From: an archaeon | GTDB taxonomy: Archaea; Iainarchaeota; Iainarchaeia; Iainarchaeales; Iainarchaeaceae | Direction of reading: 5' to 3' | Assembly: GCA_035289485.1 (NCBI GenBank) | Contig: DATDXA010000022.1 | Location: 1 to 32,085 of the forward strand | DNA length: 32,085 nt | Part shown: piece after piece, positions 7,286-32,085 of the stretch | Numbering within the stretch: position 1 is the stretch's first letter | How the letters are laid out: each line of letters opens with the position of its first letter | Notes under the pieces: model-generated | The model's input: only the letters and a program-made list of their open reading frames with translations | Databases searched by the model: none | What the model was told of the DNA's origin: nothing | Made by a program: the position numbers and the translations under genes

Positions 7286-7580
7286 ATCGGAAAAATACTG
7301 CATTACGCAAGCAAACATAATGGCGCATGAAATGATAGGCCTAAATGTTCGCGTTTTGCAAAGCACCGATAAGAGCAGAATGGGAGCTTCAGGAAAAGTT
7401 ATTGATGAGACAAAAAATGTTTTTGTGATTGAAAGCAATGGCGCTCAAATGATTTTGCCAAAAGCGGAATGCGGTTTTGAGTTTGATTTGAACGGGGAAA
7501 AAGTTATGGTTGATGGAAAAAAAATCGGTTACAGGCCTGAGCTTAGAATCAAGGCCCTTTGGAGGAATTTAAATGGCTGA
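7278..7580 (+). CDS. rnp1: Ribonuclease P protein component 1 (Rpp29/Pop4)
   Basis: HEMIGLNVRV, GKVIDETKN, RPELRIK; lies between SUI1 and uS17. Confidence 0.93.
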   Translation: MLKSEKYCITQANIMAHEMIGLNVRVLQSTDKSRMGASGKVIDETKNVFVIESNGAQMILPKAECGFEFDLNGEKVMVDGKKIGYRPELRIKALWRNLNG

Positions 7581-8064
7581 AAAAGTTCACAGCGATGAAG
7601 CTAAGGCAGTTCCATCGAGCCAGCAGGCGAAGATGGAACGCTCTCTCCCGACCGAAGGTGCCAAGCATGGCAAGAGCAGTTCGGGGGCTGAAAAAGTTCA
7701 CGGCAATGAAGCGCACGCAAAGGAAGCCCACAACAAAACGGCACATGGGAAGGAAACACCTGATGGAAAGGCAGTGGCAATGAAGCTTGTAACGCCCGAA
7801 GGATTTAGTGTCCGCGGCGCGGTACTTACAGGGCTTGTTGTGAGCGCAAAGGCGCCCAAAACCGTGACGGTTGAGAGAATAATCACAAAATACGTGCCAA
7901 AGTACGAGAGATACAAGAAAATAAAGTCAAGGGTAAAGGCGCACAACCCGGAGAGCCTAAACGCAAAGGAAGGCGACATGGTTCTTATTGGAGAGACAAG
8001 AAAACTTAGCAAGACAAAGAATTTTGTTGTAATGCAGATAATGAAAAGGGCTGGAAGCACATGA
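7573..8064 (+). CDS. rps17: 30S ribosomal protein uS17 with a ~70-aa N-terminal extension
   Basis: SVRGAVLTGLVVSAKAPKTVTV, YVPKYERY, AHNP, GETRKLSKTKNFVV. Confidence 0.96.
   Translation: MAEKVHSDEAKAVPSSQQAKMERSLPTEGAKHGKSSSGAEKVHGNEAHAKEAHNKTAHGKETPDGKAVAMKLVTPEGFSVRGAVLTGLVVSAKAPKTVTVERIITKYVPKYERYKKIKSRVKAHNPESLNAKEGDMVLIGETRKLSKTKNFVVMQIMKRAGST
7576..7712 (+). repeat. Pair of 26-nt direct repeats (AEKVHxxEA) in the uS17 extension
   Basis: gctgaaaaagttcacagcgatgaagc (7576-7601) vs gctgaaaaagttcacggcaatgaagc (7687-7712); 24/26 identical. Confidence 0.9.
7609..7639. repeat. Palindromic element, copy inside the uS17 coding sequence
   Basis: gttccatc-GA-gcc-agca-ggc-GAA-gatggaac; the same stem occurs at 27387-27420. 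Confidence 0.85.
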
Positions 8065-20779: not shown

Positions 20780-21205
20780 ATGAGTGAAATAATTAAAAAG
20801 AAAAAAAGGAAAGGAATTACTTCCAAGGCAAAGAAAAAGGAAGCGAAAGCAAGGGCTGTTGTTCACAAGGGAAAGGGCATTGTTAGGATTAATAGAAGAA
20901 ATATTGTTACGATTACTCCGGAATATGTTGTTGATTTTTTAAAAGAGCCAATAGAGATTGCAGGGCCGGTTGCGCAGGAAGTTGATATTGAAGTCCGTGT
21001 CGAGGGCGGGGGCTTTATGGGGCAGATGGTTGCTTCAAGAGCGGCAATCGCAAAGGCAATACTCGAGTACAGGCCCGATGAGAAGCTCAAAAAGCGCATG
21101 GTTGCATATGACAGGATGATGCTTGTTGATGATGCAAGAAGAGTAGAGCCTAAAAAGCCTCTTGGAAGAAAGGCAAGAAAGAAGAGGCAGCTGAGCAGGA
21201 GATGA
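20780..21205 (+). CDS. rps9: 30S ribosomal protein uS9
   Basis: KKKEAKARA, GKGIVRIN, VEGGGFMGQ, YDRMMLVDDARRVEPKK. Confidence 0.97.
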   Translation: MSEIIKKKKRKGITSKAKKKEAKARAVVHKGKGIVRINRRNIVTITPEYVVDFLKEPIEIAGPVAQEVDIEVRVEGGGFMGQMVASRAAIAKAILEYRPDEKLKKRMVAYDRMMLVDDARRVEPKKPLGRKARKKRQLSRR

Positions 21206-21297
21206 TGGACAGATTTTGTTTAATTGGAGTGCGAAGCAAGTCCAGTCGGAGACTGGACAGTCGTACCCAACAGACGAAACTGTTGAGTAGGAGGTAA
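21205..21297 (+). other. Hairpin-rich spacer spanned by a 30-aa mini-ORF
   Basis: ATG overlaps the uS9 stop (TGATG); TAA ends 4 nt before the rpoN ATG. Hairpins gtccagtc/gactggac (21240-21258) and caacag/ctgttg (21268-21285). Confidence 0.55.
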
Positions 21298-21301
21298 AAG
21301 C

Positions 21302-21502
21302 ATGATTGTCCCGGTAAGATGTTTTAGTTGCGGAACCGTTGTCGGTGAGAGCTATGAAAAGTACAAGGAGCGTGTCTCACGCGGAGAAGACCCGGCAGGG
21401 GTTCTTGACGATCTTGGCATTAAAAAATACTGCTGCAGGAGAATGATTTTTGCACATGTGGATTTTATGGATGAAATCCTAAGGCACAAGGGCGTGAAGT
21501 GA
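21302..21502 (+). CDS. rpoN: DNA-directed RNA polymerase subunit Rpo10 (N)
   Basis: MIVPVRCFSCG...LDDLGIKKYCCRRM; SD ggaggt upstream. Confidence 0.98.
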   Translation: MIVPVRCFSCGTVVGESYEKYKERVSRGEDPAGVLDDLGIKKYCCRRMIFAHVDFMDEILRHKGVK

Positions 21503-22507
21503 ATGAACGCGAAGAAAAAAACCGAAAACGAAGCGGCTGAGACGGCAGTAAAAGAGCACGTGAAAGCAGAGCAGCCTGTGCAGGCTACGCCAGAATCTCA
21601 TGCCAAGAGCAAAGCCGCGGCAGTGAACGCTGAGCAGTATGTTGAGAAGCGCGAAAGCAAGCCAGAGAGGAAAGGGCAGCTTGATGAAAATGAGCTAAAG
21701 CACACAAAGCTTGTTGAAACCGAGCGCTATCTGAATACGGGTTCGCACATCGGAACCAAGTTCAAATCAGGCGAGATGAGAAGGTACATTTACAAAGTGC
21801 GCAAGGACGGGCTTAACGTTCTTGATGTTCAGGTTATTGATGATAGGCTTGCGGCTGCCGCGAAGATGCTTGCAAAATTCAAGGGAGAAAAAATCGCTGT
21901 TGTTTCAAGGAAGAGCTATGGGCAGACTCCTGCAAAGGCATTTGCTGAAGCTGTTGGAGCCAAAGCGATTACGGGAAGATTTATCCCAGGAACTTTTTCA
22001 AACCCGCAGTGCACAAGATATGTCGAGCCGCGAGTGATAATGGTTACAGACCCTGAATACGATTTCCAGGCAATTGAGGAGGCAACAAGGGTTCGAATAC
22101 CGGTTGTTGCAATGGCATCAACAAATAACGCGCTCAAGAATATTGATTTGGCAGTGCCGGTGAATAACAAGGGAAGAAAGAGCCTCGCTCTTGCTTACTG
22201 GATACTTGCAAAAGAAGTTCTAAAGGCGCGCGATGAGATAAAGTCTGATTCGGAATTTACAAAGACTGCTGATGATTTTGAATACAAGATGAAAGAAGGA
22301 GAAGAAGAGGAGCAAAGAAGGAACTTTGAGCGCTCTGACCGCAAGGGCGGCTTTGGAAAGGACCGCGGAAGGGGCGATTCTAGAGGCGGCGGAAGGTTTG
22401 GCGGCAGGGGCGGCGGCAGATCAGGCGGATTTGGCGGCGGGCGCAGTTTTGATAGGCAGGAGAGGCAGTTTCCAATACCTGGCAGATCGGCACCACGCTC
22501 TTTTTAG
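21503..22507 (+). CDS. rps2: 30S ribosomal protein uS2 with an N-terminal extension and an RGG-rich C-terminal tail
   Basis: YLNTGSHIGTKFK, RKDGL, GRFIPGTFSNP, VTDP, PVNNKGRKSLALAYW. Confidence 0.97.
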   Translation: MNAKKKTENEAAETAVKEHVKAEQPVQATPESHAKSKAAAVNAEQYVEKRESKPERKGQLDENELKHTKLVETERYLNTGSHIGTKFKSGEMRRYIYKVRKDGLNVLDVQVIDDRLAAAAKMLAKFKGEKIAVVSRKSYGQTPAKAFAEAVGAKAITGRFIPGTFSNPQCTRYVEPRVIMVTDPEYDFQAIEEATRVRIPVVAMASTNNALKNIDLAVPVNNKGRKSLALAYWILAKEVLKARDEIKSDSEFTKTADDFEYKMKEGEEEEQRRNFERSDRKGGFGKDRGRGDSRGGGRFGGRGGGRSGGFGGGRSFDRQERQFPIPGRSAPRSF

Positions 22508-22683
22508 CGCAAAAAGCCCAAATTGTGCAAAATCATTCATTTGGCACCCCTAAATATGCCATGTTTTTTCATTTGCTTGACGTTTAAATAGGCTAATATT
22601 GCTCAAATTAGGTGTTTTCTGGCATTATAACGGGGGCACATTAACCGCCCGTAATTAATAATTGGCTAACCGTAAACAGTAAA

Positions 22684-22691
22684 TTTAAATA
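22684..22691 (+). promoter_or_regulatory. Putative TATA box for the TrmB-family gene
   Basis: TTTAAATA about 50 nt upstream of ATG 22743; SD-like aggtg at 22733-22737. Confidence 0.4.
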
Positions 22692-22742
22692 AGCGGGTGA
22701 GCCTATATATACTAGGGCAAATTAAGGTACCTAGGTGTCCTC

Positions 22743-23501
22743 ATGCAGGAATACGACGTAAATTCTTTTTTGGAAAAACTCGGCTTGACCGAGTACGAAG
22801 CGAAAACACTTTCCGCACTCTTTAACCTGCGGGAAGCGGAAGCGCCGGAAATTTCAAGGCTTGCGCAGGTGCCAAAAACAAGGGTTTATGATGTGCTTGA
22901 CAGGCTCACGAAAAAAAATCTTATAATTGAAATACACGGCCGGCCTAAGCGCTACATGTCAATTGAGGCCGAAAAAGTTTTTGCGCTGCTAATTGAGGAG
23001 AAGAGAAAAGAGCTCCAAGAGCTTGAGAAGCGCGCATCAGAGCTTAAGGAAACAATCACGGTGAACGCAGGAGACGGAAGGCACGAGCGCGTAATGAAGG
23101 TTAAGGACAAGAGCGATTTCATGAAAATTCTCGGGCAGGAAATTGACAGCGCAAAAGAGAGCGTGCACGCAATTACCCCGATAAATAAGGAGCACGGGCT
23201 TCTTAGGGAATCTCTCAAGAACGCGAATGCGAGAAATGTTGAAGTAAAGCTTATCAGCAAAATCAACGAGGGCGGGGATAAGGTCGCAAAGGAGTTCACG
23301 CAGGCGGGCGCGTCACTTAGAGGCTTTGAGCACGGGATAAACACCTACATTATTGATGGCAAGAAAGTTGTTCTTGCACTAAGCGATTTTAGCCAGGATA
23401 AGCCCGAGTACCATTTCACGATTTGGCCGGATAACAGGCCGATGGCGAGCGCCCTGAAGAAATACTTTGATCATGCGTGGGAAATGGGCAAGGAAATATA
23501 G
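22743..23501 (+). CDS. TrmB-family transcriptional regulator
   Basis: LEKLGLTEYEAK...EISRLAQVPKTRVYDVLDRL wHTH, GRPKRY, coiled coil, C-terminal IIDGKKVVL PLD-like effector domain. Confidence 0.92.
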   Translation: MQEYDVNSFLEKLGLTEYEAKTLSALFNLREAEAPEISRLAQVPKTRVYDVLDRLTKKNLIIEIHGRPKRYMSIEAEKVFALLIEEKRKELQELEKRASELKETITVNAGDGRHERVMKVKDKSDFMKILGQEIDSAKESVHAITPINKEHGLLRESLKNANARNVEVKLISKINEGGDKVAKEFTQAGASLRGFEHGINTYIIDGKKVVLALSDFSQDKPEYHFTIWPDNRPMASALKKYFDHAWEMGKEI

Positions 23502-23509
23502 GTGCAAAA

Positions 23510-23839
23510 ATGACTATTTGGGACACCGGGCAAAATGACAGGAGACATTTCGGAAAGTTGCCATGGAAAAACAAATCCTATATTTTGCTGTTTTCACTTT
23601 TATTTTTAACTCTCGCAGTATTGGTCGGCATATATTCATATTATATGTATTTTTTGCTAGGGCAATATTTGTTCGCGGCAGCGGGATTTTTGATTTCGGC
23701 ATTTGTAACCGGGTATATCATTTACACTTGGAAAAATAAAATGTGGTCAAATACAACTTGGGCTCTTGAGAAATTGATTTTACCTAAAAATAAAAATACA
23801 AATCTGGCCCTTGAGAAATTGGGTTTACTTAAAAAGTGA
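23510..23839 (+). CDS. Small hypothetical membrane protein (2 TM), AT-rich
   Basis: Two hydrophobic stretches; SD-like aggtg before ATG 23510. Confidence 0.6.
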   Translation: MTIWDTGQNDRRHFGKLPWKNKSYILLFSLLFLTLAVLVGIYSYYMYFLLGQYLFAAAGFLISAFVTGYIIYTWKNKMWSNTTWALEKLILPKNKNTNLALEKLGLLKK

Positions 23840-23891
23840 GTCTAAAAAAGCTTTTGTTATCTAATTATTTCTACATATTGGGGGCTGAATC

Positions 23892-24005
23892 ATGGATTTC
23901 AAGAAACTTTTCGGCGCTTTTGTAAAGAGCGGAGCAGACACAGGAGAAGGCGTAGCAAAGCCTAAAGGCTCCAAGTGGTCGTTTAAAGGCAAGAAAAAAG
24001 AGTAA
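23892..24005 (+). CDS. Putative 37-aa basic peptide (not in the ORF track)
   Basis: MDFKKLFGAFVKSGADTGEGVAKPKGSKWSFKGKKKE*; SD-like ggggctga at 23881-23888. Confidence 0.45.
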   Translation: MDFKKLFGAFVKSGADTGEGVAKPKGSKWSFKGKKKE

Positions 24006-24058
24006 GCAAAAACGGCAGGGAGTAGGGGTTTTAACCTTTCCCGCGTTTACTAATTCTT

Positions 24059-25711
24059 ATGGCAGAAAAAGAGGACGCATACCGCTACGCTGTCAAGAAT
24101 GCTTTTGAGCATGGCGGGCGAGCGGATTTGGGCGCTTTAATTGGAAAACTAAAGGCGCTCTACAAGGATAAAGATGTAAAGGCACTAATGCCAGTGGCGC
24201 TTGAAGCTGTGAAGAAAGTAAACGCGATGAAGCCCGCGGAAATTGAACGGGAATTCAGATCATTTGAAGGCGGCTATGAATTGAAGCCAAAGCCCGAGCG
24301 CGAAGGCCTGCCGCCGCTTGAGTGGGCGGAGAAGGGCGCAAAAGTCGTCACAAGATATGCTCCGAACCCTAACGGGCCGCCGCATTTGGGAAATGCGCGC
24401 GCGGCATTTTTGAGCTACGCTTACGCCGAGAAGTACAATGGAAAATTCATTTTGCGCTTTGAGGACACTGACCCCAAGGTCAAAAAGCCGATGGAAAACC
24501 CGGAAGAGGAATTCCGCCAAGACCTTGAGTGGTTTGGGATAAAAATCGGCGAGGTTTATTTCGCATCAGATAGGCTTTCGATTTATTACGATTTTATGAG
24601 AAAGCTCATTGAAATGAACAAGGCTTATGTTTGCTCGTGCGAGAGCGGGAAATGGAAAGAGAAGATTGACGCAAAGAAAGCGTGCCCGTGCAGGGAAAAG
24701 GATTCGAAAAAGCAGATGGAGCTTTTTGAGAAAATGATTTCGCACACTCTTAAGGAAGGCGAAGCGGTGCTGCGGCTAAAAACCGATTTGAAACATCCTG
24801 ACCCTAGCGTTCGCGACTGGTGGATTGCGCGCATTGTGGATAAACCGGAGCATCCGCGCGCAACCGGAAAAGACCATGTCTGGCCAAGCTTCATGTTTGA
24901 GAGCGCAATTGATGACCATGAGATGGGAGTTACGCTTATACTTCGCGGGCAGGAGCACGCGCAGAACTCCACAAAGCAAAAATTCCTCTATGATTATTTC
25001 GGATGGGAGCAGCCGCACGCGGTGCACTTCGGAAGGCTCTCACTTGGGGACATGGTTCTTAGCACTTCAAAAATAAAAGCAGGTATTGCAGCTGGAGAAT
25101 ATGAGGGCTGGGATGATATCCGCCTTGGGACTTTGCGCGCGCTGCGAAGGCGCGGCTTTCGGCCAGCGGCGCTTCAGAAAATACTGGTTGATTCGGGGCT
25201 CACTACAAGCGATGCGAACATTTCAATGCCAAAGCTTGCGGCATACAATCGCGAACTCATTCAGGATGAGGCCGTGCGCAGCACCTATTTGATGGACCCT
25301 GTGAAGCTGCAGGTGATTTCGCATGAGGAAATGGAAGTTGAAAAGGACGCTATGACATTTACCCTGCCGCGCGGGATGCACGAATTTTTGGTTTCTGCAA
25401 AGGAAGTTAAGGAAACAAAGTCGCAGGTTTTTCGGCTGCGCGGAGCTTACAATGTGAAAGTGGAAAATAAGGACGGATTTGCGCTTGAAGGCAAGTTCGC
25501 GGGCAAGGACATGGAAGGCAAACAGGTGATTTCGTGGATAAATGACATGATGGACCTTGAACTAAAGCTTGCGGACGGCTCGCGAGAAGTGGGGGTTATT
25601 GAACGGATGGATTTGCGCAGGGGAATGTATTTGTATCTGGAGAAGAAGGGGTTTTGCGTTGTTGATTCAACTGATGGCCCAAGGCCGGTTGCTTATTTTG
25701 CACATGAGTGA
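24059..25711 (+). CDS. gltX: Glutamate--tRNA ligase (archaeal type)
   Basis: TRYAPNPNGPPHLGNAR (HIGH-like), LRFEDTDP, IDDHEMGVTLILRGQEH, LSTSK, GWDDIRLGTLRALRRRG. Confidence 0.97.
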   Translation: MAEKEDAYRYAVKNAFEHGGRADLGALIGKLKALYKDKDVKALMPVALEAVKKVNAMKPAEIEREFRSFEGGYELKPKPEREGLPPLEWAEKGAKVVTRYAPNPNGPPHLGNARAAFLSYAYAEKYNGKFILRFEDTDPKVKKPMENPEEEFRQDLEWFGIKIGEVYFASDRLSIYYDFMRKLIEMNKAYVCSCESGKWKEKIDAKKACPCREKDSKKQMELFEKMISHTLKEGEAVLRLKTDLKHPDPSVRDWWIARIVDKPEHPRATGKDHVWPSFMFESAIDDHEMGVTLILRGQEHAQNSTKQKFLYDYFGWEQPHAVHFGRLSLGDMVLSTSKIKAGIAAGEYEGWDDIRLGTLRALRRRGFRPAALQKILVDSGLTTSDANISMPKLAAYNRELIQDEAVRSTYLMDPVKLQVISHEEMEVEKDAMTFTLPRGMHEFLVSAKEVKETKSQVFRLRGAYNVKVENKDGFALEGKFAGKDMEGKQVISWINDMMDLELKLADGSREVGVIERMDLRRGMYLYLEKKGFCVVDSTDGPRPVAYFAHE

Positions 25712-25737
25712 ACACTCAGCGGGCACAGATAATAATA

Positions 25738-25754
25738 TATATCAATTTGATATA
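25738..25754. promoter_or_regulatory. Palindromic putative operator upstream of the TA pair
   Basis: TATATCAA-T-TTGATATA, a perfect 8-bp inverted repeat in an AT-rich tract 20 nt before the start codon. Confidence 0.6.
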
Positions 25755-25773
25755 CATATTTTTAGGTGATTCT

Positions 25774-26040
25774 TTGGGAAATTCTTTAGTTAGAATGGAA
25801 GGCGCGCAGGAACTTATTGTGGATAAGCTTACGAAAAACGGGTTCTACAAGACACGCAGCGAAGTGATAAGGGCCGGGGTGCTCGAGCTTGCCGCAAAGC
25901 ACAAGCTGTTCAAAAACGCCAAAGAGATAGAAGATGAGCTTGTTGTAAAAAAGATGAGGAAAATCTCTGAGGAAATAAGGCAGGGCAAGCGCAAAGTATT
26001 CACAGAAGCGCAGGTAAAGGCAAAATACGGCTTGAAGTGA
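25774..26040 (+). CDS. Ribbon-helix-helix protein, putative antitoxin (TTG start)
   Basis: SD aggtga then TTG; SLVRM...IVDKLTKNGFYKTRSEVIRAGV matches the CopG/ParD-like RHH pattern; C-terminal EVKAKYGL-like tail (EAQVKAKYGLK). Confidence 0.8.
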   Translation: MGNSLVRMEGAQELIVDKLTKNGFYKTRSEVIRAGVLELAAKHKLFKNAKEIEDELVVKKMRKISEEIRQGKRKVFTEAQVKAKYGLK

Positions 26041-26045
26041 TTTAA

Positions 26046-26300
26046 TTGTTTGAGCTCACTTACGCCGAAGGCTGGGATCGGCACTTCTCAAAATTTGACA
26101 ATTCAGTAAAGCAAAAAATATGGAAAAAAATCCAGCAAATAAAAATCCTTGTAAACCCAAGGCATTTGCGGCACGGAGAAGCGTTCTTTGTTGAAGAGGC
26201 GGGGCAATATAGGATATGCTTCGAACAGGCCGGCGCTGGCACACGGCGGATAACATTTGTTGGAAACCACAAGCAGTATGAGAAGTGGTACAAGCGATAA
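26046..26300 (+). CDS. Putative RelE/ParE-superfamily toxin (TTG start)
   Basis: 84 aa, basic; FSKFDNSVKQKIWKKI, GQYRICF, ITFVGNHKQYEKWY; directly downstream of the RHH gene. Confidence 0.75.
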   Translation: MFELTYAEGWDRHFSKFDNSVKQKIWKKIQQIKILVNPRHLRHGEAFFVEEAGQYRICFEQAGAGTRRITFVGNHKQYEKWYKR

Positions 26301-26402
26301 AACGGCAACTTATTTATTCATTTGAGCCCTCGCAGGGCAACGTATTTAATCGTCAACCCCCTAATTCTACATAATTAGCTTTGGTTTCTTTTCCCGTCCC
26401 GC

Positions 26403-26418
26403 CAACCCTTTTAAACCC
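26403..26418 (+). promoter_or_regulatory. Putative TATA-box promoter of the L7Ae operon
   Basis: caacccTTTTAAAccc, about 35 nt upstream of the k-turn leader. Confidence 0.5.
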
Positions 26419-26450
26419 TTTCAAAGGGATTTATTCTATAAGTTCTTTTT

Positions 26451-26498
26451 TTGCCTATGACAATGAGAACCCCGATATGTAGGGGCTCGAGGAGGTGA
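26451..26498 (+). promoter_or_regulatory. Tandem kink-turn in the rpl7ae 5' UTR (putative L7Ae autoregulatory site)
   Basis: Two 3-nt bulges (UAU, AAU), each followed by tandem G-A/A-G pairs; closed by CCCC/GGGG; the 3' strand contains the SD GGAGGUGA. Confidence 0.8.
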
Positions 26499-26503
26499 GT
26501 TCA

Positions 26504-26869
26504 ATGGCAGAATTCGTAAAATTTAGTGTACCAGAAGAGCTAAGGGCTAGGCAAGCAGGTTTGCTTGAGAAGATAAAGAAAAGCGGCAAGGTAAAAATCG
26601 GCGCAAATGAAGCCACCAAGGCCGCAGAAAGAGGAGTTGCAAAGCTTGTCGTGATAGCAGAAGATGTTACGCCGCCAGAGATTGTAATGCATCTCCCGCT
26701 GATTTGCAAGGAAAAAAACATACCATACAGCTACGTCTCAACAAAGAAAGGACTGGGACAGTATGTGGGAGTTGAGGTCGGCACCGCGGCAATAGCGGTA
26801 CTTGACGAGGGCGACACCAAAAAGGAGTTCTCGGAGTTCACAAAAAAGCTGCAGGAAGCGGCGAAGTGA
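26504..26869 (+). CDS. rpl7ae: 50S ribosomal protein eL8 (L7Ae)
   Basis: GKVKIGANEATKAAERG, IAEDVTPPEIVMHLP, CKEKNIPY. Confidence 0.98.
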   Translation: MAEFVKFSVPEELRARQAGLLEKIKKSGKVKIGANEATKAAERGVAKLVVIAEDVTPPEIVMHLPLICKEKNIPYSYVSTKKGLGQYVGVEVGTAAIAVLDEGDTKKEFSEFTKKLQEAAK

Positions 26870-26881
26870 AGGTGATTCTTG

Positions 26882-27085
26882 ATGGATAGAGGAACACCAG
26901 CTGAAGTTGTTGAAATACTCGGAAGAACAGGAGTGTACGGAGAAATAGTGCAGGCCCTTTGCAAAATCCTCGAAGGCCCCGAAGCCGGGCGCGTAAAGAG
27001 GCGCAATATAAAGGGCAACTGCAAAAAGGGCGATGTGATAATCCTGCTCTCAACAGAAAGAGAAGCAAAGGAAATCAAGGCGTAA
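26882..27085 (+). CDS. rps28e: 30S ribosomal protein eS28
   Basis: PAEVVEILGRTGVYGE, RRNIKG, GDVIILLSTEREA. Confidence 0.97.
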   Translation: MDRGTPAEVVEILGRTGVYGEIVQALCKILEGPEAGRVKRRNIKGNCKKGDVIILLSTEREAKEIKA

Positions 27086-27097
27086 TGGGTGATATGA

Positions 27098-27355
27098 ATG
27101 CCTACAGATTCGTTTACCGGAAAGGAAATCCCCAAGGGAAGGGGAATGATGTATGTGAAGAAGGACGGGACCGTGTACTGGTTTGCGGACAAGAAGTCTG
27201 AGAAGAATTTTTTGAACATGCACAGGACTCCTAGCGAAACCAAGTGGACCAACTTCTACCACAGGGAAAAGGAAATAAAGCTCAAGTCAAAGGCAGGGCA
27301 GGCGGCAAAGAAGGCCGCAAGGGAGAACAAGGCGGAGAAAAAAGGAGGCGCGTAA
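27098..27355 (+). CDS. rpl24e: 50S ribosomal protein eL24 (Cys-free variant)
   Basis: SFTGKEIPKGRGMMYVKKDGTVYWF, KWT; follows eS28. Confidence 0.95.
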   Translation: MPTDSFTGKEIPKGRGMMYVKKDGTVYWFADKKSEKNFLNMHRTPSETKWTNFYHREKEIKLKSKAGQAAKKAARENKAEKKGGA

Positions 27356-27356
27356 C

Positions 27357-27446
27357 ATGAAAAATGGTTGCGAACGAAGTGAGCAAGTTCCATCGAGCCC
27401 GCAAGGGGCGAAGATGGAACACCTTGCCAGCGGAGGTGACCGCTGA
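27357..27446 (+). other. Palindromic element spanned by a 29-aa mini-ORF
   Basis: Hairpin gttccatc-GA-gccc-gcaag-gggc-GAA-gatggaac (27387-27420). ORF MKNGCERSEQVPSSPQGAKMEHLASGGDR*, ggagg upstream, stop overlaps the ndk ATG (TGATG). Confidence 0.65.
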
Positions 27447-27910
27447 TGGAGAGAACTCTTGTAATAATCAAGCCAGACGGCATAAACAGATCGCTTGCCG
27501 GTGAAGTCATCAGCAGGTTTGAGAAGAAAGGCATAAAGATAATCGGAATGAAAATGGTGCATCTCTCAGACAAGATATTAGAGGAACACTATGCTCATCT
27601 GGCCTCAAAGCCATTCTTCAAGGGAATAAAAGAATTCATGAAGAAGGCTCCGAGCATTGTAATGGTGCTTGAAGGGCGCAAGGTAGTTGACGTTGTAAGA
27701 AAACTCGCAGGCGTAACTGAAGGAACTGAAGCGCTGCCAGGAACAATAAGGGGCGATTTTTCTCTTAGCATTCAGAACACAATCATACACGCCTCGGATA
27801 GTTTAGATGCGGCCGGCAAGGAAATTAAGAGATTTTTCAAATCAGATGAGCTGCACGACTATACAAGGGTTGATTCGGAGATGGTTTACTCCGATAGCGA
27901 GAAGAAGTGA
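27446..27910 (+). CDS. ndk: Nucleoside diphosphate kinase
   Basis: ERTLVIIKPDG, EHYAHL, PGTIRGDF, IIHASDS catalytic His. Confidence 0.98.
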   Translation: MERTLVIIKPDGINRSLAGEVISRFEKKGIKIIGMKMVHLSDKILEEHYAHLASKPFFKGIKEFMKKAPSIVMVLEGRKVVDVVRKLAGVTEGTEALPGTIRGDFSLSIQNTIIHASDSLDAAGKEIKRFFKSDELHDYTRVDSEMVYSDSEKK

Positions 27911-27916
27911 AAGCAC

Positions 27917-28015
27917 ATGCCGACGATAATTGCTATGCCGAGTGCGAAGTCAGGCCTACCGAGCCCAAGCGAGGTAGTCCGCTCCCTCAGGGCGAGCAGG
28001 TCGGGGGTGCTGTGA
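27917..28015 (+). other. GC-rich palindromic spacer spanned by a 32-aa mini-ORF
   Basis: ctacc-GA-gc-ccaa-gc-GA-ggtag (27956-27977). ORF MPTIIAMPSAKSGLPSPSEVVRSLRASRSGVL* ends directly before the dut ATG. Confidence 0.55.
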
Positions 28016-28444
28016 ATGAATGTTGAGGTCAGGCGCATTGTCCCGCAAGCGAGGCTGCCAAAGCTAGAGCACGAGGGCGATGCAGGCTTTGACCTCTACA
28101 GCATTGAAGATGCAATCCTTAAGCCGCTTGAGCGAAAGCTTGTGCGAACAGGCATTAGCATCGCACTAGAGCACGGCTTTGAAGCGCAGGTGCGCCCAAA
28201 AAGCGGGCTTGCAATTGAGCACGGAATTACAATGTTAAATAGCCCGGGAACAATTGACGCCGGCTATCGCGGGGAGATAAAAGTTATTGTAATAAATCTC
28301 GGGAACAAGGAATATAAAATCGAGGCCGGAAAAAAAATCTGCCAGCTTGTGTTCAATAAAATTGAGACCGCGCAAATTGTTGAAGTGCAAGAGCTCAGAG
28401 ATAGCAAAAGAGGGGAGGGCGGATTTGGCTCTACGGGGCTTTAA
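28016..28444 (+). CDS. dut: dUTP diphosphatase (trimeric dUTPase)
   Basis: DAGFDL, RPKSGLA, GTIDAGYRGEI, ICQLV, RGEGGFGSTG. Confidence 0.97.
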   Translation: MNVEVRRIVPQARLPKLEHEGDAGFDLYSIEDAILKPLERKLVRTGISIALEHGFEAQVRPKSGLAIEHGITMLNSPGTIDAGYRGEIKVIVINLGNKEYKIEAGKKICQLVFNKIETAQIVEVQELRDSKRGEGGFGSTGL

Positions 28445-32048: not shown

Positions 32049-32057
32049 TGCGAGAGC

Positions 32058-32085
32058 GCGGCTGCATGCGAGCGTAGCGAGCCGC
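32058..32085. repeat. Probable further palindromic element at the window edge
   Basis: gcggct/agccgc stem enclosing GAGC-GTA-GCGA. Confidence 0.45.

Follow-up and report, generated by a model that had tools for sequence, protein, structure and literature searches.

How does a repeat of about 100 nucleotides (nt) come to sit, and to persist, between the genes of tightly packed operons? The question is raised by contig C22 of genome G000, an uncultured DPANN archaeon represented by 64 contigs with a total of 1.16 Mb (46% G+C, 90% complete). The window analyzed here is this entire 32-kb contig (32,085 nt), which carries ribosomal-protein operons, and three of its gene junctions, uS9/rpoN, eL24/ndk and ndk/dut, hold spacers of about 90–105 nt. 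A preliminary description of these letters had stated that each spacer is filled, from the upstream stop to the downstream start, by an ATG-initiated open reading frame (ORF) of 29–32 amino acids (aa), and this proves right, with the coordinates correct to within a base. Repeats of about 100 nt also lie inside the RpoB''/RpoB', PheS/PheT, SufC/SufB and AtpF/AtpA junctions of genomes with hardly any spare DNA, and according to the passages of PMC10666635 that treat the subject, coupling by termination-reinitiation requires overlaps or spacers of a few bases and is nearly abolished by a spacer of ~20 nt in Haloferax and E. coli.

We find that the spacers belong to a family of repeats that is real and widespread in this archaeal lineage, and whose copies are gained and lost. 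The reading that we favor, with moderate confidence and on the strength of sequence comparison, is that this is a mobile two-hairpin repeat that settles at gene junctions and is crossed there by a mini-ORF that would relay ribosomes by reinitiation. The observation made on the three spacers is confirmed, and its earlier interpretation is supported in part. Throughout, G000 is the genome under study, G001 and upward are relatives, and C-numbers denote contigs.

Three operon spacers filled by mini-ORFs and hairpins

Pfam matches around the three spacers identify uS9, RpoN, L7Ae, eS28, eL24, Ndk and dUTPase, all features described here being on the forward strand of the window. Spacer 1 follows the uS9 stop codon (TGA, 21203–21205), which overlaps two in-frame ATGs, one at 21202 (as ATGA) and one at 21205 (as TGATG); as read from the sequence, mini-ORF 1 (21202–21297) accordingly encodes 31 or 30 aa, and its TAA at 21295–21297 lies 4 nt ahead of the rpoN ATG at 21302. 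Spacers 2 and 3 lie within the operon L7Ae-eS28-eL24-ndk-dut (26504–28444). The eL24 gene ends with TAA at 27353–27355, the 29-aa mini-ORF 2 (27357–27446) begins with ATG at 27357, and its TGA at 27444–27446 shares a single base, the A, with the ndk ATG at 27446. The ndk gene ends with TGA at 27908–27910, and the 32-aa mini-ORF 3 (27917–28015) runs from an ATG at 27917 to a TGA at 28013–28015 that directly abuts the dut ATG at 28016, in the same frame.

Each spacer contains one copy of the repeat, detected with a covariance model, R1, that is described below. Element copy 1 (21227–21288; R1 E = 2.5e-6) consists of a leader (21227–21239), hairpin 1 (21240–21258) and hairpin 2 (21268–21285). Element copy 2 (27374–27448; R1 E = 8e-15, being itself a seed row of the underlying alignment) has a hairpin 1 at 27387–27420 with a GA/GAA internal loop, a linker CACCT at 27420–27424, and a hairpin 2 at 27428–27445 whose loop holds a Shine-Dalgarno (SD) sequence (27432–27439). 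Element copy 3 (27940–28008; R1 E = 8e-9) has a leader at 27940–27952, a hairpin 1 (about 27953–27980) whose GA/GA loop is symmetric, and a hairpin 2 (about 27982–28007) that is degenerate and carries the dut SD in its 3' arm; a 60-nt copy with 93% identity to it is present on contig C3. The three spacers had been called hairpin-rich, which holds for spacer 1 (fold z = -5.9, none of 200 shuffles as good) and spacer 2 (z = -4.4, again none of 200), whereas the fold of spacer 3 is not significant. An independent metagenome contig spans 26811–28096, and with it spacers 2 and 3, with one difference.

A dispersed family of double hairpins

Short-word BLAST searches of the spacers against G000 gave many partial copies, and three motif patterns served as the seed of an nhmmer profile that identifies 45 places at E < 0.05 in that genome, among them all three spacers and an intragenic segment at 7596–7702. 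The covariance model R1, built on an alignment (A1) of 15 simple copies, reports 40 places at E ≤ 1, again including the three spacers and the intragenic copy, which lies in the uS17 gene. The spacers are homologous members of one dispersed palindromic family, as had been supposed by likeness to repetitive extragenic palindromes (REP) and Rickettsia palindromic elements (RPE). The motifs that first suggested this fit the picture as well: the 10-mer common to positions 21227 and 27940 is exact, and the stem-GAGC-loop-GCGA-stem pattern at about 7609, 27387 and 27956 is hairpin 1 of the family. A similar string at 32070 had been listed with them and does not form that hairpin; it resembles instead a variant of the 5' leader that precedes copies on C21, C18 and C46, and the last 36 nt of the window (32050–32085), which begin at the TGATG of the preceding gene, are probably the leader of another copy cut by the contig end.

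The repeat is 60–130 nt long. A short leader (often with ..GCGAAGYCA) comes first, followed by hairpin 1, whose stem varies, by a linker rich in C, and by hairpin 2, of which there are several types. Hairpin 1 often has an invariant UCGAG...CGAAGA internal loop, absent in some copies, and in others two extra hairpins are nested within it. Pairing is well maintained: among the 15 seed copies 90.9% of stem cells are paired, compared with 25–47% when the partners are slid, and 12 of 18 base pairs show compensatory changes; for 86 distinct copies from relatives, in an alignment fitted to model R1, the values are 91.8% and 18 of 18. The invariant letters of hairpin 1 (UCGAG / CGAAGA) resemble what we take to be the core of the Kt-7 kink-turn. 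A kink-turn, as in an L7Ae-binding site, was considered for hairpin 1 and rejected: the covarying Watson-Crick register pairs the invariant UC with GA and leaves a 2x3 GA/GAA loop (GA/GA in spacer 3), and in the kink-turn register the outer, non-canonical stem is mostly mismatched. No Rfam family gives a relevant match over the spacers at E ≤ 1, and the only match in the window at gathering score is a tRNA.

One subtype of hairpin 2, found in spacer 2 and in most operon copies of relatives, presents an SD in its loop and ends in TG or TA, so forming TGATG or TAATG with the start codon; in most of the relatives' operon copies the stop codon consists of the last two bases of hairpin 2 and the A of the downstream ATG. 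Complementary to this loop SD is the linker sequence CACCU(C), present in 6 of the 133 copies sampled and, within the L7Ae operon, in 9 of 20 long spacers. Pairing between the linker and the hairpin 2 SD may constitute an attractive switch, both strands of which are invariant.

Copies are gained and lost at orthologous junctions

Matches to R1 are present in 19 of the 22 other genomes sampled from the same taxonomic family (23 with G000), in 32 of 61 relatives overall (G000 included), and, at E ≤ 1e-6, in 33 genomes of a phylum-wide sample of 121. The gene order L7Ae-eS28-eL24-ndk-dut is retained in all 23 family genomes, and the junction that is occupied differs from genome to genome; empty junctions mostly range from overlaps to ~25 nt, and those that bear the element measure 76–161 nt. 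An element between eL24 and ndk is found only in G000 and G016, and an R1-matched element between ndk and dut only in G000 and G021, the frame in G021 continuing into dut. The ndk/dut spacer of G017 is 103 nt long without an R1 match, and the L7Ae/eS28 and eS28/eL24 junctions are filled in several other family genomes. At uS9/rpoN the junction is occupied in G000, G002, G003 and G006, and measures 4–17 nt in G001, G004 and G005, which belong to the same genus. A search of sister genomes for empty sites had been proposed, and such sites exist in both operons. A metagenome contig of depth 2, in which 40 other letters connect 27318 with 27446, is possibly an empty eL24/ndk site of a co-occurring relative, and is too weak to count.

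The elements have a strong orientation bias, with 26 sense and 5 antisense copies between tandem genes of G000 and 4 versus 0 inside genes (this count, and some of the junctions, rest on crude gene calls); among loci of the L7Ae-dut operon 18 of 19 model matches are sense. Junctions that contain copies include, by Pfam, RpoB''/RpoB', RpoB'/RpoA', NusA/uS12, uS7/EF-2, AtpF/AtpA, PheS/PheT and SufC/SufB, together with two transketolase halves, EF-1alpha/uS10, PCNA/PriL, and others. Several of these separate the members of a subunit pair (RpoB''/B', B'/A', PheS/T, SufC/B, AtpF/A and the transketolase halves), and the passages of PMC10666635 concerned report that short overlaps are enriched where the genes encode subunits of heteromeric complexes.

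Insertion footprints at the flanks

Flanking sequences of 50 nt on each side of 133 copies, 53 from G000 and 80 from relatives, were compared with mismatched-flank controls, and 25 of the 133 score at or above the 99th percentile of the controls, a level reached by 8 of 665 controls. The flank repeats are direct, abut the element, and vary in length from 14 to 49 nt, with perfect examples of 36/36, 27/27, 26/26, 25/25 and 19/19 matching positions; that at PheS/PheT contains stop, SD and ATG together.

At uS9/rpoN the left target copy (21194–21205) is the last three uS9 codons plus the stop (AGCAGGAGATGA), and an identical 12-mer ends uS9 in the empty-site relatives G001 and G004. These final 12 nt of uS9 are repeated directly 3' of hairpin 2 as the right target copy (21286–21297; AGTAGGAGGTAA), which supplies the rpoN SD and the stop of mini-ORF 1 and differs from the left copy by AGC>AGT, AGA>AGG and TGA>TAA, such that mini-ORF 1 ends SRR-stop as uS9 does. 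Relatives G006 and G003 have the same arrangement. An exact target duplication was sought for spacers 2 and 3 and could not be reconstructed, the two sides sharing only the SD and the ATG. The window provides a further example within a gene, where a copy (element 7596–7688; R1 E = 2e-11) occupies positions 7575–7712 of the N-terminal extension of uS17 (gene 7573–8064); a 27-nt direct repeat (7575–7601 and 7686–7712; 25 of 27 identical) surrounds an 84-nt insert, and the total of 27 + 84 = 111 nt keeps the gene in frame. The S17 domain identified by Pfam begins only at residue 87, and the extension of ~85 residues derives in part from the element and the 27-nt flank repeat.

Fifteen copies have their left repeat in the frame of the upstream gene. 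Their two flank copies differ at 21 bases, of which 15 occupy the third position of a codon, and a tally by codon gives 10 synonymous and 7 nonsynonymous differences. This third-position bias hints that the right copy is constrained: it is consistent with translation of that copy, and consistent too with a left copy that codes and a right one that serves as an initiation region.

Tandem arrays of flank copy plus element, with a period of ~87 nt, are seen at locus L187 (G007:C116), in G015:C24 and in G011:C47, and are reminiscent of variable-number tandem repeats. At eS28/eL24, the copies of G013 (L071) and G009 (L075), genomes of one genus, have a common 5' part and quite different hairpins, which suggests rapid turnover or replacement of hairpin modules.

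Stop-to-start bridging by mini-ORFs

A junction was scored as bridged if a frame beginning with ATG, GTG or TTG between -4 and +24, counted from the end of the upstream stop, terminates between -15 and +8 relative to the downstream start. Among 23 sense junction copies of G000, 15 are bridged (14 with ATG); shuffling of the whole spacer yields 4.47 ± 1.74, and none of 1000 shuffles reaches 15, whereas shuffling of the interior alone yields 10.43 ± 1.84, and 12 of 1000 reach it. The set from relatives, consisting of the 13 loci that a tightened rule retained as junction-type out of 80 fetched (the other 67 being dropped before the count), has 10 bridged copies, against 2.49 ± 1.35 for whole-spacer shuffles (0/1000 reach this number) and 5.65 ± 1.35 for interior-only shuffles (3/1000). 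ORFs starting with ATG cross 18 of the 23 junction copies as against 8 of 30 other copies of G000, the antisense strand of the junction copies giving 6 of 23, and tandem gene pairs 60–200 nt apart are bridged in 13 of 21 cases with an element and 31 of 193 without. The bridging frames have 23–51 codons and run through the hairpins, and 10 of the 15 bridges in G000 begin at -4, with an ATGA or GTGA overlap. Eighteen spacers of at least 60 nt in the relatives' L7Ae operon include 11 that count as bridged when the left window is narrowed to -4 to +12, 3 more that by eye have an ATG at about +13 to +23, and 2 that open into the downstream gene.

The excess of bridging over shuffled sequence, over copies elsewhere and over element-free spacers, which the preliminary description proposed as its own check, is therefore present, and bridging is non-random. 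It is also largely built in by the insertion footprint, and the tight ORF edges at both genes, real as they are, are for the most part a by-product of a target duplication that copies stop, SD and start. Since interior-only shuffles still bridge 10.4 of 23 junctions, the signal of selection on the open frame is modest, though real.

A ribosome relay and its alternatives

The relay that we favor could operate as follows. Insertion duplicates a target of 14–49 nt, which at a gene junction comprises the final codons and stop of the upstream gene, the SD and, in many cases, the start of the downstream gene. Of the two target copies, the left one leaves a start codon that overlaps or adjoins the upstream stop (ATGA or TGATG), and the right one, or hairpin 2, leaves an SD and a stop in contact with the real downstream start; the tight edges of the frame at both genes follow largely from this duplication of the stop/SD/start junction. 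A ribosome finishing the upstream gene could then reinitiate on the mini-ORF, melting the hairpins as it goes, terminate on the downstream start, and reinitiate there, and coupling by termination-reinitiation would therefore survive an insertion of ~100 nt. Tightly coupled operons would lose those copies that interrupt the relay. As has been proposed for the mycobacterial interspersed repetitive units (MIRU), the mini-ORFs probably hand ribosomes from gene to gene. If the relay is real, it would be a natural insulation of essential operons from insertions, and would offer a ready-made bicistronic coupling device from archaea.

Several observations weigh against this proposal. Stop-poor composition and duplicated edges explain most of the bridging pattern, each bridged gene is preceded by an SD of its own, within or after hairpin 2, such that independent initiation could suffice, and 8 of 23 junction copies in G000 and 3 of 13 in relatives are unbridged, some being in-frame fusions and some reflecting crude gene calls. 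The unbridged junctions of G000 are uS15/eS1, Spt4/eS24, uS7/EF-2 (tight at its 3' end only), three with doubtful genes or promoters, and fused copies. The stems contain 31 G-U and 49 A-C pairs, and as G-U does not exceed A-C there is no sign of selection on the structure of the sense RNA rather than of the DNA. The fold of spacer 3 is as good in 19 of 200 shuffles (z = -1.7) and not significant alone, no more than about a fifth of the copies show clear flanking repeats, and no transposase is linked to the family in searches for Y1, PF00078, Cas1 and PF07282 proteins.

An alternative is a selfish hairpin repeat that plays no translational role, whose mini-ORFs are untranslated, or irrelevant, scars of a target duplication at stop/start junctions within GC-rich palindromes poor in stops, and whose downstream genes initiate independently from their SD. 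The flank duplications account for the start and the stop at the edges, interior-only shuffles keep 10.4 of 23 bridges, the SD is present in the loop or 3' arm of hairpin 2, and stops are scarce in the frames of the element on either strand, the antisense frames being as open as the sense ones (80 versus 56 of 135). We think this account somewhat unlikely; against it stand the findings that the interior is open above chance in two sets of copies (12/1000 and 3/1000 shuffles), that ATG-ORFs cross junction copies much more often than other copies (18/23 versus 8/30), that most operon copies of relatives form their stop from the end of hairpin 2 and the A of the ATG, and that the sense bias is strong. 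A host cis-regulatory RNA, whether a protein-binding leader (for example one bound by L7Ae through the GA-rich loop) or a signal for processing or stability, with the mini-ORF as a leader peptide, would fit stems that covary around the UCGAG...CGAAGA loop and its presumed Kt-7 likeness, the copies that touch the first base of a tRNA or precede ribosomal-protein genes, and the conservation of the family across the taxonomic family. It is an improbable explanation of a sequence that is present or absent at one junction within a genus, occupies different junctions in different genomes, and comes with target duplications and tandem arrays; moreover, the covarying register makes a 2x3 GA/GAA loop and not a kink-turn, some copies miss the loop, and no Rfam family matches.

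That the mini-ORFs are N-terminal extensions of the downstream proteins, expressed through a recoded or leaky stop from elements that are RPE-like coding inserts, is very improbable. The stop is in frame with the downstream start in spacer 3 and at C64:11333 and C47:3600, and genuine in-frame fusions exist (uS17 in G000 and dut in G021), yet most stops overlap the start out of frame (TGATG, TAATG, ATGA), and the stop codons employed are of three kinds; table 11 gives a normal reading of the window's genes, and there is accordingly no hint of a changed code. A broader proposal, which we put forward tentatively and with some doubt, is that these repeats represent a new class of prokaryotic mobile element, protein-less double hairpins that are copied by some process, perhaps replication or template switching, with a duplication of 14–49 nt, and that have evolved into portable translation couplers. 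Such couplers would present or hide an SD by means of hairpin 2 and provide a frame that lets ribosomes pass, and could in this way colonize the most essential operons and the 5' ends of tRNA genes in genome-reduced archaea.

Search for a mobilizing enzyme

A partial gene for an IS200/IS605-type Y1 transposase (PF01797) lies at a contig end of G000 (C40:8017–8184), and its visible upstream flank has GC-rich hairpins and no copy of the repeat. Matches to PF01797 occur in 8 of the 22 other family genomes, compared with 19 of 22 for the element, and are absent from the copy-rich genomes G012 and G003, each of which is 94% complete; a link to Y1 transposases of the type associated with REP sequences (RAYT) was rejected, there being no association across the 22 genomes. 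Reverse transcriptase (PF00078) and Cas1 (PF01867) have no match in G000 at its 90% completeness, and TnpB-type PF07282 has a sub-threshold match only. Assignment to the miniature transposable elements with inverted repeats (MITEs) was rejected in its turn: the hairpins are local, the ends of the element do not pair, and the flank repeats vary from 14 to 49 nt. No parent insertion sequence (IS) was seen, though no systematic IS search was made. The target duplications are unusually long and variable, and no transposase, PF00078 or PF01867 protein was found to go with the family.

Relation to described repeats

The preliminary description knew of no account of such a system, and here it was mistaken, since MIRU, in the passages of PMC12548453 that review Supply et al. 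(1997), are described as mobile, inserted at start codons, and equipped with an internal ORF coupled at -4, which minimizes the effect on expression. The likeness, which is one of description and not of sequence alignment, extends to short, apparently mobile intercistronic repeats at start codons, to tandem units, which the relatives also have, to sense placement between co-directional genes (26 versus 5), and to an internal ORF that touches the upstream stop and the downstream start (15/23 and 10/13). MIRU are bacterial (Actinobacteria) and the repeat described here is archaeal, and membership in MIRU by descent is therefore unlikely. Unlike MIRU, the repeat forms double hairpins with covarying stems, has an SD in hairpin 2 of one subtype and long, variable flank duplications, and has copies at the 5' ends of tRNAs and, in frame, within genes as well. 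The archaeal repeat would thus appear to be new, but to be of a kind already known from MIRU.

In-frame insertion into conserved protein genes (here uS17, uS15 and the dut of G021) is shared with RPE and with palindromes of Methanocaldococcus jannaschii (Suyama 2005), the archaeal case cited, beside bacterial MITEs, for frames fused into genes in the relevant passages of PMC2229807. Unlike RPE, to which those passages assign no relay role, most junction copies here contain separate stop-to-start mini-ORFs. With the group formed by REP, BIME and REPIN sequences and by MITEs such as Correia/NEMIS, ERIC and RUP, as far as the same passages describe them, the family has in common dispersed, GC-rich, non-autonomous hairpins, a place in operon spacers, co-transcription, and filled and empty sites. 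It differs in having no RAYT link, no terminal inverted repeats that span the element, and flank duplications of 14–49 nt rather than the 2–9 nt given there for that group, where REPs are extragenic and not described as translated. A literature search, supplements lying outside it, found no report of such repeats in archaea or DPANN.

Other sites and further observations

Copies elsewhere lie in 5' leaders, before T-runs, or so close to a tRNA gene of the same strand that their 3' end falls on its first base, and are mostly not crossed by ORFs. The tRNAs that an element abuts are those for Ile, Leu, Lys and Trp in G000 (L024, L029, L031 and L037, on C36, C40, C43 and C49) and for Ile and Pro in two relatives (L118 and L135), and they gain structured leaders of 70–110 nt. 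In-frame copies in coding sequence, a minority of all copies, are those in uS17, uS15 (C31:79454) and the dut of G021. The family accounts for a number of oddities of these genomes, including gene tails present in duplicate, proteins extended at the N terminus, as uS17 is, orphan mini-ORFs, tRNAs with long leaders, and contig breaks.

The ends of contigs C13, C51, C31, C52, C36 and C46 fall within repeat copies, as probably does the end of the window (32050–32085), and the repeat family therefore fragments the assembly. A 16-nt motif, CACCGGCACCGAACCC, occurs 20 times in G000 with at most 2 mismatches (for example at C4:10258, C5:26641, C14:15684 and C38:1357; none was seen in the window), usually a few bases 5' of a TTTAAA-like box and often directly 3' of an element copy, and may be a promoter-associated box. 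The eL24 of the window (27098–27355) has 85 aa with a lysine- and alanine-rich tail, and in many relatives the distance from the start of eL24 to that of ndk is about 205–211 nt, which implies a shorter eL24; insertion of the element may have remodeled the tail.

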